From a virus, in IMG/VR virus record IMGVR_UViG_3300033552_000001, positions 66,131-130,130 of that record: a stretch of DNA of 64,000 nt; one strand, 5' to 3'. Made by a program: the position numbers and the translations under genes. Shown one piece after another: positions 1 through 58,065 of the stretch. Under the pieces are notes generated by a model. The model searched no databases, had not been told where the DNA came from, and saw nothing but the letters and a program-made list of their open reading frames with translations. Within the stretch, counting starts at the first letter, position 1. Each line of letters opens with the position of its first letter.

Positions 1-2985
1 TTACAGGCACAACAACAAGCATTAGCTAATGTTGAAACAATGGATGGTAAAATAGCTGATACTCCTGCTTCACTTACTTATTTAGATACTGTATTAAAAG
101 AATTTCCTTTGGGAACTGTTGAAACAAACATCACTCCCAAGTATTTACTATCAGATGATGGTAAAACATTTGTTGCAGGTATTAAAAAGAAATTCAATGT
201 GCATTCAATGTTTGCTCATATAATTACTCATAGAAACACTACTACTGGTAAAAAGAATATCGGCCCTGATGTTAACTGGAATTTATTAGATATTGTATTG
301 AATAGACTTGATGTACAAATCAATCCTAAGAATGCTGTTATGGTTGAAATTAATGGAAAACAAGAATCATTTGATTCTCTTCAGTTATTTTTAAATCATA
401 AAATGGAAAATGGTGGTGAATTTTTAAGAGTATTTGATGTACTATCCACTATGATTTCTGCTGCAACTGATGAGGCTAAAGAGCAATTAAATGCAAGATA
501 TGGACTTACTATTGATGCTTTAAATGCAATTCTTCCTTTTGTTGCTATGGGAGGAAATCTTTCTATTGGAATTGCCTTAGTAAATCAACCAGTTATTAAA
601 GAATTTTTAGCTTTTAAAGCCAAGAAGAATTATGCTGTTTTAACAAAAAAAGAAACTGGATATAAATATTTTAACAATGAAAAGATTATTGAAGAAATGT
701 TTAAATCACAAGATGCTTATGAAATTATAAAAGCATCAGAACTTGTATTTTCAATAGATGATTTAGCCAAAGGACTTAGACCAAAACAATATGCTGAATC
801 AACAAAAGAAATAAAAATGGCAATGTTAAGAGACTTTTTAAAGTTGTCAGAAATAACTGAATATGGAAATAATGTAGTGGGAGCAATTAAGCTTAAAAAA
901 GGACTTTCTACTGATATTTATGCTTTTAATGATACCTTAGAAAAATTGGCTAAAATACAATATGAACCAGGAAGTACAGAAGATACATCACCATTTTTTA
1001 TTAAAGAAGAAATTAAAAACAATCCATTAGCAAAAGAAATCAAAGGTAAAATAGAAATAGTAGAAAGAATTAATGAAGCTTTGCCAAAACTTCTTGCTAT
1101 AAAATCTCCAATATTTGAAGCACTTAGAGCTTCTATTAAGACACAAGCAAAGGAAAATTGGAATAATGTTGAATTAAAAGAATTGGATAGTGAATTAGAA
1201 TCATTTATTTACAGCCAAATGCTTTATAAATCATTAGAAGAGGCTGGAAACTATGATGCATTATTATTAAAGTATTTAAAATCAGGACTTACAGATCCTA
1301 CTGATGATAATAACATTGTTAATGTATTTACAAAATTTAAAACAGCTATTGCAAATGATCCTACTTTAAATAACAATTCTTTAATTAAGAAATTAGAATT
1401 ATTAACAGAAAGTGGTACATCATTTTTAAAACTAAATCAATTAGTTAAATTAAATGATAATCAAATGACTGATTTAGCTGATGCATTTACTTTTTTAGCT
1501 AATAGACCATTTTCAATAAATGAAGGAATATCACCATTAGAATTGACAAAGGCTTTACAAGCATTGTATATTATTAAAGATGGTATGCAATTTAAATACA
1601 CAGGTATTACTAAAATATTTCCTGTTGAAGTATTTACAAGAATGTCTGAAAATATTGAAAAAGTAATAAAGAATGGTGAAGATGTAAAAGAATTATTTAC
1701 TACAGCAACATTTAACGAATTTCAAAGAAGATATTTTGAATCTGTTAAACATAAAAGTAGTAGTAAAACAATTACAATTTATGATGTTAAAGGAAAAAAT
1801 GATGAGTATTTATTTGAATTAGATAAAATTACTGGTGCAAGTTTAGCTATTTATACTGAACAGAAAGGAAGTGGAATAACAGTTGATAAGAAAGGTAATT
1901 TACTAAGATATATTACATTAAAAATTGGTAAAGATTCTTACAGTATGAAGCTTATTTCTAATGATGGATTAACATCTGTTTACAATGAATACAAACCACT
2001 TGGTACTTCTAATAGTACTTTAATGGGACTTCCTATTGAAAATAATGTATTTGTCAGTACTGATAGAAAAGAAGTTTCTTTACCAAGTGATAGTGAAAAG
2101 CTTGTAGTTTTTGAAGGAAATATTAACTTTACAGAAATTAATAACAATCAAGATGGACAAAGAACAAAAGGACAGGATAAAATTAATCAAAGACTATTAT
2201 CAGATTCAGAAAGACGAAATATTGATAGATTATCATCAATACGAAATAAGGAAATGGAAACACAAGCCTTGTCAGGGATTATTTTGTATGCTGATTCCAA
2301 TAAAAAAGGAATTATATCAAAAACTAATAAAGAAGGAAACATTAAAGTGTTTAAAGTGGACAGCTCTGAGTCCTTATTATCAGTTATACAACAAAAGCTT
2401 AATGACAGGAACACCCTCAACGGAAAAATATTTGCAGAACTTAAAAGAGTGGCTGACACCAAATTGGTAGTTGATAATAACGGGCATTTTATTTATGTTA
2501 CTGGAGATAATATGTATATTAATCCTAAAGCAATGTTTGAACATTTAAAAACAGAAAATGGTGAAAATTATTTAGACACATTGTTATTTGAGGAATTAAT
2601 TCATATTATTACTAATCAATTAATTACTTTTCAAGAAAAAATAAAATTAACAAAAGATCAATTAAAAAAAGACTCTGCTTTTGTCACTAAAGTTGCAAAT
2701 GTTTATCCTACAAAAAATTCTTATGAAGCATATTTTGAGTATATAAGAGTAATGGTTCAACAAGAACTAATAGGAACAACTACTTTAAAAGAAAGAATAA
2801 CATGGGATGAAACTGCCATTAAAATATTTAATGAGCTTATGGAATTTATTTTTTCAGTAATTGAAACAAGAAACACTAAAAAATTAATTAAAAAACACGT
2901 TAATTATATTAATGAAATTAAGAATCAATCAAACCAAGAACAACAATCAGATACAGAATTAAAAATTTGTGAAGGTAATAAATAA
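1..2985 (+). CDS. C-terminal part of crAss-like virion (non-canonical two-barrel) RNA polymerase; gene is 5'-truncated by the window
   Basis: Frame is open from base 1. LSTMISAATDEAKEQLNARYGL...AMG...LVNQPVIKEF matches the AxxDxAK...G...NQP signature that follows the catalytic motif in crAss-like/phi14:2 gp66-type RNAPs. Degenerate zincin-like LFEELIHIIT near the C-terminus. The DxDxD motif is not in the window. Confidence 0.72.
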   Translation, partial: LQAQQQALANVETMDGKIADTPASLTYLDTVLKEFPLGTVETNITPKYLLSDDGKTFVAGIKKKFNVHSMFAHIITHRNTTTGKKNIGPDVNWNLLDIVLNRLDVQINPKNAVMVEINGKQESFDSLQLFLNHKMENGGEFLRVFDVLSTMISAATDEAKEQLNARYGLTIDALNAILPFVAMGGNLSIGIALVNQPVIKEFLAFKAKKNYAVLTKKETGYKYFNNEKIIEEMFKSQDAYEIIKASELVFSIDDLAKGLRPKQYAESTKEIKMAMLRDFLKLSEITEYGNNVVGAIKLKKGLSTDIYAFNDTLEKLAKIQYEPGSTEDTSPFFIKEEIKNNPLAKEIKGKIEIVERINEALPKLLAIKSPIFEALRASIKTQAKENWNNVELKELDSELESFIYSQMLYKSLEEAGNYDALLLKYLKSGLTDPTDDNNIVNVFTKFKTAIANDPTLNNNSLIKKLELLTESGTSFLKLNQLVKLNDNQMTDLADAFTFLANRPFSINEGISPLELTKALQALYIIKDGMQFKYTGITKIFPVEVFTRMSENIEKVIKNGEDVKELFTTATFNEFQRRYFESVKHKSSSKTITIYDVKGKNDEYLFELDKITGASLAIYTEQKGSGITVDKKGNLLRYITLKIGKDSYSMKLISNDGLTSVYNEYKPLGTSNSTLMGLPIENNVFVSTDRKEVSLPSDSEKLVVFEGNINFTEINNNQDGQRTKGQDKINQRLLSDSERRNIDRLSSIRNKEMETQALSGIILYADSNKKGIISKTNKEGNIKVFKVDSSESLLSVIQQKLNDRNTLNGKIFAELKRVADTKLVVDNNGHFIYVTGDNMYINPKAMFEHLKTENGENYLDTLLFEELIHIITNQLITFQEKIKLTKDQLKKDSAFVTKVANVYPTKNSYEAYFEYIRVMVQQELIGTTTLKERITWDETAIKIFNELMEFIFSVIETRNTKKLIKKHVNYINEIKNQSNQEQQSDTELKICEGNK

Positions 2986-33201: not shown

Positions 33202-33645
33202 TTATTGTGATTTTATTGCTAAATTTTCTAAAAAAGAATAATAAAAATCATAATATTCATTAAATTTATCTTGAGCTTTTTCTGTATAAATAAGAATTTC
33301 GTCCTCTTCAATCCATATTAAATCATCTATTTCTTTTTCATTTTTCTCCTTATATGTATTATTAAACTCTGCAATTAAATCTAATTCAGCTAATTCTGAT
33401 GCTACTTGCAAGATATTAACTTTAATCTCATCTGTATTCATTTTTATTTTTTTAAGTTTTAAATTATATTTACCTAATAAATTTTTTAATTCCATTAATG
33501 ATCCTTTTCCAAACCCTTTAATTTTTAATAAATCTTTTTCACTATACTCAGTAAATTGATCTAAATAAAGAATGTTATGTCTGTAAAAACAATTAAACAA
33601 TCTTACAGTCATATCTAAATTCTTGAAAATAATTTTATCTTTCAT
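33202..33645 (-). CDS. RNA polymerase alpha-CTD-like domain fused to an acidic helical domain
   Basis: NLDMTVRLFNCF...YSEKDLLKIKGFGKGSLMELK aligns with alpha-CTD DLELTVRSANCL...[20 protein letters not shown]; C-terminal half is paralogous to 35049..35285. Confidence 0.8.
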   Translation of the reverse strand: MKDKIIFKNLDMTVRLFNCFYRHNILYLDQFTEYSEKDLLKIKGFGKGSLMELKNLLGKYNLKLKKIKMNTDEIKVNILQVASELAELDLIAEFNNTYKEKNEKEIDDLIWIEEDEILIYTEKAQDKFNEYYDFYYSFLENLAIKSQ

Positions 33646-34553
33646 TTTCTTTTTTCCTCGATGCTTGCTTCTAAAAGAACTGAATACAAAATTGTATCAG
33701 ATATTTTCTCTGCAAGAGCTTCTTTTGAAGGTAATTTACCAATAGTATTAATATCAGTTACAATATCTTGTAATGAAATAAGATGTTTTAACAGAAATCC
33801 CCATAATACTTTTTCTCTACATTCACCAGTAAATGCACTACCAACATCAAAGTTGTGAAATGGGTTTGCATTTCTCCTGTATTCCAAAGATTTTACTGTC
33901 ATCAACTCCTTAATATAACTAAGTCTATTACTAACAATTGTATCAAAATCAAATTCAGCAATCTTATTTTCTGGTTTTGCAAGTTGTTGTTGATTCACAA
34001 GATTAATAGCATTAGTAATGGATTTACAAGAAAGATCTATATTATATTTATCAACAGGATAAGTAAGACAATTAACAAAATCATCAATTTCCACTAAATC
34101 AAAAGTTTCTCCTATTAATTGATTAATTGGTATTTGAGTATCATCTTTTAAATAAGAATCAATCTCTTTTACAATATCATCTTTAACTGGAAATCCAACA
34201 TTATTAAAATATTCTTTATTGCTAGTTTCATCAATTATTATTTTAGTAAGATAAGCTGATGGTATTTGTAATGCTTTTAAATTACCTTTTTCAAAATTAG
34301 TAATTCCTAATTGTACTCTGGTTTGTAAATTCAAAAAGCTTTGAATATGTTTTTTTAAATTAAGCTCATATAAAGTATTGCCTTTTGAGTAATAAAGAAA
34401 GTCTCTATTAATTTCATCTTTTAAACTAATTCTAATATGAAATGGATGTACAGCTGATTTATATCCAGCTACTGCAAATTGTGGAAAATCCCAATCTTTA
34501 TTATCAAGATTTAATTGTTTATTAAATTTCTGTTTGAATTCTGCTTTTGTCAT
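33642..34553 (-). CDS. Protein with C-terminal DUF1599/Nmad1-like (MazG-superfamily) helical domain
   Basis: KSLEYRRNANPFHNF...VLWGFLLKHL.SL.D...EKISDTILYSVLL; the N-terminal ~200 aa are unrecognised. Confidence 0.45.
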   Translation of the reverse strand: MTKAEFKQKFNKQLNLDNKDWDFPQFAVAGYKSAVHPFHIRISLKDEINRDFLYYSKGNTLYELNLKKHIQSFLNLQTRVQLGITNFEKGNLKALQIPSAYLTKIIIDETSNKEYFNNVGFPVKDDIVKEIDSYLKDDTQIPINQLIGETFDLVEIDDFVNCLTYPVDKYNIDLSCKSITNAINLVNQQQLAKPENKIAEFDFDTIVSNRLSYIKELMTVKSLEYRRNANPFHNFDVGSAFTGECREKVLWGFLLKHLISLQDIVTDINTIGKLPSKEALAEKISDTILYSVLLEASIEEKRK

Positions 34554-34747: not shown

Positions 34748-35059
34748 TCATAATAGATTTTTATTTATTTTTAAAAATATTTTAAAATACTCTTCTTCAA
34801 ATTTACTTTTTGTTATTTCAATTTGAAAGTTTGCCAATGAAACTAATACTATTTGTACACAATTTTCTTTTATTTTTAATACAGCAAAAAGAATATCATA
34901 AATAGTGTTATGAGAATAATCAATAACTTTTATAAAAGAATTATCGCATGCATAACATTTACCAATATAATATTTATATCTTTTTTCAGTTTTTTCAATT
35001 TGATTGTATTCTATTTGGAGAAGTTTTATTTTTTTTAATATATCCTCTTTATTTTCCAT
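34748..35059 (-). CDS. Hypothetical protein
   Basis: Operon packing. Confidence 0.5.
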   Translation of the reverse strand: MENKEDILKKIKLLQIEYNQIEKTEKRYKYYIGKCYACDNSFIKVIDYSHNTIYDILFAVLKIKENCVQIVLVSLANFQIEITKSKFEEEYFKIFLKINKNLL

Positions 35060-35285
35060 GTTTTTTAATTGCTAATTTCTCTATCACATCATAAAACTCA
35101 TAATAATAATCATTAAATATTTCCTGTGCTTCTTCTTTGTAAGTTGTAATTTCTTTAGATTCATTGAATATTAAAGCGTGTACTTCTTCATCTGTATATC
35201 CTAAATTATTCATTTCATATCTTTCAACTAACTTTAATTCAGCTAGTTCACTCACAAGCTCTAATAAATTTATTTCTATATTCAT
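35049..35285 (-). CDS. Acidic helical protein, stand-alone paralogue of the C-domain of 33202
   Basis: INLLELVSELAEL...YKEEAQEIFNDYY..FY..IEKLAIK. Confidence 0.65.
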   Translation of the reverse strand: MNIEINLLELVSELAELKLVERYEMNNLGYTDEEVHALIFNESKEITTYKEEAQEIFNDYYYEFYDVIEKLAIKKHGK

Positions 35286-57834: not shown

Positions 57835-58065
57835 TTATATTTCAGTTAAAATTCCATCAATCGTTTCATATTCAGCATCAAATTCTACATCCCATTGTGT
57901 CCAATAAGAATATCTAGGATTTTCTTTACATTCAACATTCCATTCTTTATCTGTGTATTCTGTATGTAAACAATCATCTGAACAATAATAATTTGTACCT
58001 CCATCAATTACATAACCTTCATCCATTCCTTCTCCACAACAAGAGCATTTTCTTGCAAATTTCAT
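57835..58065 (-). CDS. Small Zn-finger-like protein
   Basis: RKCSCCGEGM.EGY...YYCSDDCL...YWTQW. Confidence 0.65.
   Translation of the reverse strand: MKFARKCSCCGEGMDEGYVIDGGTNYYCSDDCLHTEYTDKEWNVECKENPRYSYWTQWDVEFDAEYETIDGILTEI

Follow-up and report, generated by a model that had tools for sequence, protein, structure and literature searches.

A predicted phage protein that joins an RNA polymerase alpha C-terminal domain to a conserved acidic domain

The target gene and its surroundings

We analysed a 64,000-nucleotide stretch of DNA (hereafter the window), which makes up the right-hand half of an IMG/VR virus record (130,130 bp, 26% G+C). Positions 33445-33645 of the window, which an earlier note had read as a free, phage-encoded mimic of the RNA polymerase (RNAP) alpha C-terminal domain (alpha-CTD), encode residues 1-67 and are the 5' part of a 147-aa ORF on the minus strand (hereafter the target), as given by the ORF list. 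The features of the locus are collected in Table 1.

Table 1. Features at the target locus (positions in the window)
Feature	Position	Strand	Description	Basis
Whole 147-aa ORF	33202..33645	minus	Alpha-CTD head, short Lys-rich linker and acidic C-terminal domain; stop codon counted	ORF list
Alpha-CTD core, residues 8-64	33454..33624	minus	Equivalent to E. coli 258-314	Pfam, PDB matches, AF2 and Foldseek, charges
Junction K65-K66-I67-K68	33442..33453	minus	A7 on the coding strand (plus-strand T run 33447-33453)	Sequence
Acidic C-terminal domain, residues 69-147	33205..33441	minus		Alignments, HMM, AF2 model
Free 78-aa paralogue of the acidic domain	35049..35285	minus	41% identity, E 8e-15	BLASTP
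Upstream 303-aa gene	33642..34553	minus	Stop overlaps the target start (ATGA)	ORF list and junction sequence

The target ORF lies within a tightly packed run of minus-strand genes that spans the window between about 64 kb and 24.9 kb. The same strand and block carry genes for a DNA polymerase and a helicase, homologues of rIIA/rIIB and homing-endonuclease-like genes. Through the ATGA overlap, the target is probably translationally coupled to the 303-aa gene upstream of it. Residues 202-302 of the product of that gene matched phrog_6802, a PHROG family without an assigned function (E 2e-30), and Pfam and PDB searches with it returned no relative. In a scan for sigma-70-type promoters around the target gene, matches were no more frequent than in shuffled sequence. 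Searches of 50,697 phage records, by tblastn with the target protein and by blastn with the 8 kb around its gene, gave no homologue from a cultured phage.

The same record encodes a 2789-aa ORF (G000:C1:60746-69112, the end of which occupies window positions 1-2985) with two DFDxD motifs, DFDSD and DFDVD, and this ORF adjoins others for giant proteins. We presume from these motifs that it encodes a virion RNA polymerase of the crAss type, and the earlier note's premise of a phage with its own virion RNAP therefore holds up. A large, crAss-like source phage fits the presence of such a protein beside giant proteins. Searching the phage's own genome gave no second match to the alpha-CTD family PF03118, so this polymerase has no detectable alpha-CTD insertion. 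In phi14:2, the one crAss-like phage for which transcription has been studied, the whole replication module belongs to the early genes, transcribed by the virion polymerase injected with the phage, and the middle and late genes require host RNAP (10.1101/2020.03.07.982082). By analogy, the target gene would be an early gene, its product made when the host enzyme needs redirecting; phi14:2, on which this analogy is built, has no detectable homologue of the target protein.

The alpha-CTD head and its divergence from cellular relatives

To which family the head belongs was clear from several searches. RNA_pol_A_CTD (PF03118) was the sole Pfam match in the target at E values up to 1, covering residues 8-57 with E 1e-14 and a score of 54.4 bits against a gathering cut-off of 23.8 bits. 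With phmmer, all 45 matches in the PDB were RNAP alpha. Residues 9-64 of the target align with residues 259-314 of E. coli alpha, two spans of equal length, so that the E. coli number is the residue number plus 250. At this offset, R15, N18, C19, G46, K47 and S49 correspond to R265, N268, C269, G296, K297 and S299, and equivalents of all five residues of the '265 determinant' (R265, N268, C269, G296 and S299) are thus present. The backbone-contact positions K298 and N294 are occupied by Gly48 and Gly44, and the equivalent of L262 is Met. The earlier note had picked out the same five equivalents and the change of K298 to Gly (TVRLFNC...GFGKGSL), and its assignments proved exact.

K298 is critical to UP-element binding in E. 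coli. It is gone from all three members of the clade to which the target belongs, being G in the target and F both in P0036, a 92-aa metagenomic protein, and in a protein of the viral contig L015. As judged from the alignment, the loss of K298 and N294 bears on DNA affinity and not on homology.

An AF2 model of residues 1-68 had a pLDDT of 87.4. When this model was searched with Foldseek, every row listed was RNAP alpha, with TM scores of 0.65-0.88 (0.80-0.88 in the top rows) and an rmsd of 1.1-1.3 A in the best superpositions; 1z3e_B, 1lb2 and 9zum were among the matches. The alignment used for folding consisted of alpha-CTDs, and the sequence evidence for the family is independent of the model. 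Taking sequence and predicted structure together, residues 8-64 are a genuine RNAP alpha-CTD and not a generic HhH domain. The earlier note's alignment of about the first 65 residues with the alpha-CTD is borne out by the PF03118 score, the PDB matches and the Foldseek rows listed, and the best structural match is not the generic HhH domain that would have refuted that note.

The target is nevertheless no RpoA subunit: it has 147 aa as against about 310-350 aa, and Pfam found no alpha-NTD in it. Pfam likewise gave no match to Sigma70_r4 or an HTH domain in the target. NCBIfam rpoA models aligned through their last ~60 positions only, with scores far under the cut-offs, and PHROGs held no family matching the target or the other alpha-CTDs. 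Cellular RpoA CTDs (about residues 250-329; PDB 1lb2, 1z3e, 3n97 and 9zum) share with the target the family, the fold and most contact residues. Unlike RpoA, however, the target lacks an alpha-NTD and is not an RNAP subunit, its alpha-CTD is basic where that of RpoA is mildly acidic, and a four-residue Lys-rich link joins this domain to an unrelated acidic one.

We compared the head with cellular alpha-CTDs. Identity to the RpoA alpha-CTDs of Bacteroidota, which were matched in 99 of 101 genomes, was 29-44% (22-40 bits), and the similarity was no better than that to alpha of Melainabacteria, Bacillota or Francisella. In an alignment with 40 cellular alpha-CTDs, six nearly invariant positions were altered in the target (N294G, K298G, S263T, L270F, A273H and L281F). 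In a tree, the target grouped with its nearest relatives, P0036, to which it is 58% identical, and the protein of phage L015, and the branches leading to the target, P0036 and L015 proteins measured 0.87, 0.37 and 1.27, respectively, against a median of 0.03. These three fell outside all sampled RpoA clades with support of 89/84, a weak placement from 57 columns in which long branches meet and which could reflect long-branch attraction. A recent capture from the rpoA gene of a host was considered and rejected on the identity values and on the tree, which shows no sign of one.

The charge of the head also differs from that of its cellular relatives. Residues 1-68 have a pI of 9.75 and a net charge of +8 (+4 for the core alone), whereas the medians for cellular alpha-CTDs are pI 5.2 and net charge -2. 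Most of the other phage alpha-CTDs that we retrieved are near pI 5.6, and all three members of the clade (target, L015 and P0036) are basic. The position of E261 is acidic in the same three (D, E and E). Comparison of the sequences indicates that the core is preserved in the target, as are most of the residues that contact DNA, but not the surface that a decoy for activators would need.

These observations do not support the word 'mimic', which implied a competitive decoy: the phage alpha-CTD would sequester activators, sigma region 4 or NusA, or occlude UP elements, and host promoters would be starved as a result. The domain is a true alpha-CTD, it keeps an acidic residue at the position of E261, where E. 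coli alpha makes contact with sigma region 4, and its gene lies in a presumed early block, all of which a decoy would share. A decoy should copy the surface of the host protein, however, and the low identity, the long branch, the six changed positions and the reversed charge speak against such a copy; nor does a decoy account for a conserved acidic partner, or for the occurrence of the split and fused forms described below. The idea of NusA titration in particular rests on the AR2 contact of E. coli, which is not universal. We regard a pure decoy as distinctly unlikely, and less likely than an effector anchored on DNA: the head has kept its core and most contacts, gained positive charge and lost similarity on the rest of the surface, a pattern more in keeping with a DNA anchor than with a decoy for host activators.

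The acidic domain, the junction and the split form

The earlier note had treated the alpha-CTD as a free domain. It is instead fused to a conserved acidic domain, and this acidic domain is the more widespread of the two partners. Residues 69-147 have a pI of 4.05 and a net charge of -13, in keeping with the acidic family overall (median pI 4.1, net -7 to -16). The domain opens at an internal methionine, Met69 (MNTDEIKVNIL...), which aligns with the start codon of several free homologues. The phage's own genome holds exactly two copies, the one in the target and the free paralogue listed in Table 1, which lies 1.4 kb upstream of the target in the same gene block.

By scanning IMG/VR with a profile, we found at least 143 viral loci that encode the acidic domain. 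At the 80 loci that we retrieved, it was nearly always a stand-alone ORF of 65-90 aa, sometimes with two copies per locus, and an exhaustive search of representative proteins likewise gave small proteins of 65-92 aa that match the acidic half alone. The family HMM matched the target with E 1.4e-33 over positions 2-79. Two motifs mark the family, N-I-x-E-x-A-S-E-L-A and Y-T-E-x-A-Q-D-x-F-N-x-x-Y-D. The target has the invariant Q57, F60 and Y64 (domain numbering) as well as the nearly invariant N9, E12, S15, A18, Y52, A56, N61 and D65.

An AF2 model of the acidic domain, built from 74 sequences, had a pLDDT of 93.5; in it, a long and a short helix are followed by a beta hairpin and a second long helix. 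Pfam gave no match for the 74 members of the family, PHROGs held no family for the domain and a PDB profile search with the family found no relative. With the model, Foldseek returned no PDB row below E 1, a BFVD search gave uncharacterised phage proteins only, and the best VIA-align Z was an unremarkable 5.9 in a wide search and 4.2 in a second search. In the ESM Atlas, only unnamed Bacteroidota and viral clusters lay above TM 0.5. As far as sequences and models go, the acidic domain is an autonomous conserved family with a fold that has no known match.

The N-terminal domain of T4 MotA was the top named Foldseek row and was tried as a candidate for the fold. The match had an E value of 1.4 and a TM score of 0.39, and VIA-align superposed the two with a Z of 2.6 and an rmsd of 5.4 A over 64 residues; on this Z score the lead was dropped.

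ORF clustering across the 80 loci revealed no conserved neighbours of the acidic gene beyond a loose set of small acidic and zinc-ribbon-like genes at varying distances. Six longer proteins with the acidic domain (158-196 aa) contained no Pfam domain. The proteins at L029:4845-5198, L047:4845-5198 and L051 carry the acidic domain behind an N-terminal CxxC...CxxC segment that resembles a zinc ribbon, and those at L209 and L212 carry a different acidic N-terminal extension of ~80 aa.

On the coding strand, the junction between the two domains of the target reads CTT AAAAAAA T AAAAA TG. With one A fewer, a TAA stop would follow ...KLKK, and the locus would hold two genes, one for an alpha-CTD of 66 aa and one for an acidic protein of 79 aa, with the ATG of the second lying two bases (AA) past the stop. 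Read from this sequence, the fusion depends on a single A7 run. Among 1.84 billion representatives, only P0001, which is identical to the target, has both domains in one protein. The whole-protein model in the ESM Atlas had a pTM of 0.43, which fits two domains without rigid packing.

This arrangement raises the question of an assembly artefact, in which the true run is A6 and the locus holds two genes, as in L015. The stop and the nearby ATG of the A6 version would suit this explanation, as would the start of several free homologues at Met69, the end of the closest alpha-CTD relative, P0036, at the same place, and the fact that one assembly alone carries the fused protein. We therefore looked at A/T runs of at least 7 in ORFs of at least 600 aa of the assembly. 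All 29 such runs keep the frame, including those in the 2789-aa ORF, so homopolymer errors look rare and we consider an artefact highly improbable. Even if it were one, the genes would stay adjacent and the functional link would stand. The A7 run sits exactly at the domain boundary and could be a slippage site that gives both forms.

A split form of the same pair was found in L015 (IMGVR_UViG_3300012665_001850), a 66.9-kb viral contig from an uncultured phage. L015 encodes a 138-aa protein with a C-terminal alpha-CTD (Pfam E 1.1e-10), preceded in the chain by a 66-aa upstream module, and a TAATG overlap joins the stop of its gene to the start codon of the next, which encodes a free acidic-domain protein of 79 aa. 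The alpha-CTDs of L015 and the target share a sub-type (FNC..., FGK[FG], YNLK). The same two modules thus occur in the same order in both phages, although they are two polypeptides in L015 and one here. In L016, a close relative of L015 with the same flanking genes, the 66-aa N-terminal part is followed directly by the acidic gene, and the alpha-CTD segment alone is absent. Since L016 keeps the acidic gene without the alpha-CTD, the latter is an accessory, optional part. The gene sequences indicate that the two modules are linked in two different phages, in one chain here and as coupled genes in L015. In a single case among the 80 viral loci retrieved, an alpha-CTD lay near the acidic gene; this was so at none of 18 metagenome loci, and the acidic domain was found at none of 73 other viral alpha-CTD loci.

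The regions L015:4561-5216 and L016:4814-5231 differ by the alpha-CTD coding segment between the 66-aa module and the acidic gene, and TTATAT (...LY) stands at both edges of that segment in L015. Directly 3' of the acidic gene, both L015 and L016 have a member of a family of Cys-rich ORFs. A 76-aa ORF of this family (MKFARKCSCCGEGM...YWTQWD) lies on the minus strand at window positions 57838-58065. At other loci, the Cys-rich family occurs within a few kb of the acidic gene; here, the two are 22-24 kb apart.

It is a classic sign of interaction when two proteins are fused in one phage and encoded by translationally coupled neighbouring genes in another. The two modules might therefore be a cognate pair, the acidic domain binding to the basic alpha-CTD within the chain here and between chains in L015. 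Their complementary charges (+8 and -13) agree with such binding, and so does the basic nature of the target, L015 and P0036 alpha-CTDs, in which they differ from cellular and most other phage ones. As corollaries, the free acidic proteins would bind alpha-CTD-type domains, perhaps that of host RNAP alpha, with the phage alpha-CTD as a partner, regulator or adaptor that is built in. The low pTM of the whole-protein model argues against this pairing, and because host alpha-CTDs are acidic, the interface would not transfer simply to them. We rate the cognate pair as decidedly improbable.

A broader proposal builds on the same binding, and we hold it to be very doubtful. The acidic 65-90-aa proteins would form a new, widespread class of phage proteins that dock on alpha-CTD-type domains and in most phages grip the tail of host alpha. 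Here and in L015, the pair would serve as a portable extra alpha-CTD arm. The AT-rich elements upstream of phage promoters would be the sites to which this arm re-aims a polymerase, be it host RNAP or that of the crAss virion, an enzyme that lacks an alpha subunit.

Candidate roles and alpha-CTDs in other phages

Our leading proposal, which we put forward tentatively and at somewhat less than an even chance, is that the alpha-CTD head anchors the acidic effector on AT-rich DNA and thereby modulates transcription. The two-module protein would probably be made early in infection, a timing taken from the analogy with phi14:2. Its first module (residues about 8-64), which descends from the CTD of RNAP alpha, retains the fold and most of the residues for minor-groove and backbone contacts and is now strongly basic, would bind AT-rich DNA of the promoter-upstream type with low sequence specificity; such DNA would be ubiquitous in a phage of 26% G+C and in an AT-rich host. 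The second module (residues 69-147) would be an effector that binds a protein partner, and the wide distribution, autonomy and conservation of the acidic domain fit a protein-binding effector. The fusion, or the overlapping gene pair of L015, would concentrate the effector on DNA beside the transcription machinery. This concentration could help to shut off or redirect host RNAP, which would be needed for a crAss-like phage's middle and late genes. Of the options raised by the earlier note, tethering a phage effector to promoters fits best. T4 MotA/AsiA, which re-aim host RNAP, offer an analogy only, as a DNA-binding module combined with a small domain that contacts the transcription machinery; they have no homology to the target.

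Several observations temper the anchor proposal. With K298 lost and N294 replaced by Gly, the DNA affinity of the head may be low or altered. No fold match, informative fusion or conserved neighbour among those examined pointed to a partner of the acidic domain. The pairing of the alpha-CTD with the acidic domain is rare among the loci retrieved and could be incidental.

Infection by crAss-like phages begins with an injected polymerase and later depends on host RNAP, and we know of no account of how these phages take over the host enzyme. For this switch to host RNAP, a phage alpha-CTD linked to a conserved acidic module offers a candidate that is concrete and can be cloned. The fused, split and absent states are the first link between an orphan family, present in well over a hundred phage contigs, and a transcription module. 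The acidic family gains its first functional handle in this way, while the mechanism is one that we infer from sequence.

To see where else phages use this domain, we scanned viral sequences with canonical alpha-CTD patterns, a search that favours canonical motifs, and obtained 73 viral contigs. About 60 of the 73 encode a protein of about 260-335 aa, commonly about 332 aa, that combines HTH_17, sigma-70 region 4 and the alpha-CTD; others encode shorter variants. A Sigma70_r4-type HTH was found in nearly all tested representatives of the larger group. This combination, recurring in about 60 contigs, marks the alpha-CTD as a DNA and promoter module of phages. Literature searches turned up no work on phage-encoded homologues of the alpha-CTD, either of the target type or of the sigma-4 fusions.

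Like the target, the sigma-4 proteins reuse the alpha-CTD beside another domain, making it a reusable building block of phage proteins. The two arrangements differ in other respects. The target alpha-CTD is N-terminal and basic and has lost K298, whereas in most sigma-4 fusions it is C-terminal and near-neutral and keeps NFGKKS. The sigma-4 fusions pair the alpha-CTD with a second DNA reader, whereas the partner in the target is acidic and has no sign of DNA binding. What is new here is thus the partner, an acidic orphan domain in place of the second DNA reader of the recurrent class.

Another candidate is a role outside transcription, in which the alpha-CTD head is a general HhH DNA anchor for replication, recombination, nucleoid remodelling or defence evasion. 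The target gene lies among the genes for the DNA polymerase, the helicase, rIIA/B and the homing-endonuclease-like proteins, and many non-RpoA proteins carry alpha-CTDs, including some with tandem arrays. Moreover, phage proteins that are small and very acidic often inhibit DNA-binding proteins of the host. The head belongs specifically to the alpha-CTD family and not to HhH domains of the repair type, however, and other phages join the alpha-CTD to sigma region 4, a promoter-reading module; we consider a role outside transcription unlikely.

The ~332-aa protein is encoded at L140:2359-3369 and at about 60 further loci (L138-L206), on viral contigs of 50-130 kb. Most of these come from the sample set 3300045988, and the gene often lies about 6.3 kb from the end of the contig. 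The tandem arrays occur in metagenomic proteins with up to 11 alpha-CTD copies per chain, such as P0004 (1031 aa) and P0005 (452 aa). Proteins of this kind were frequent among the 928 search matches, with whole-protein scores above those of true RpoA.
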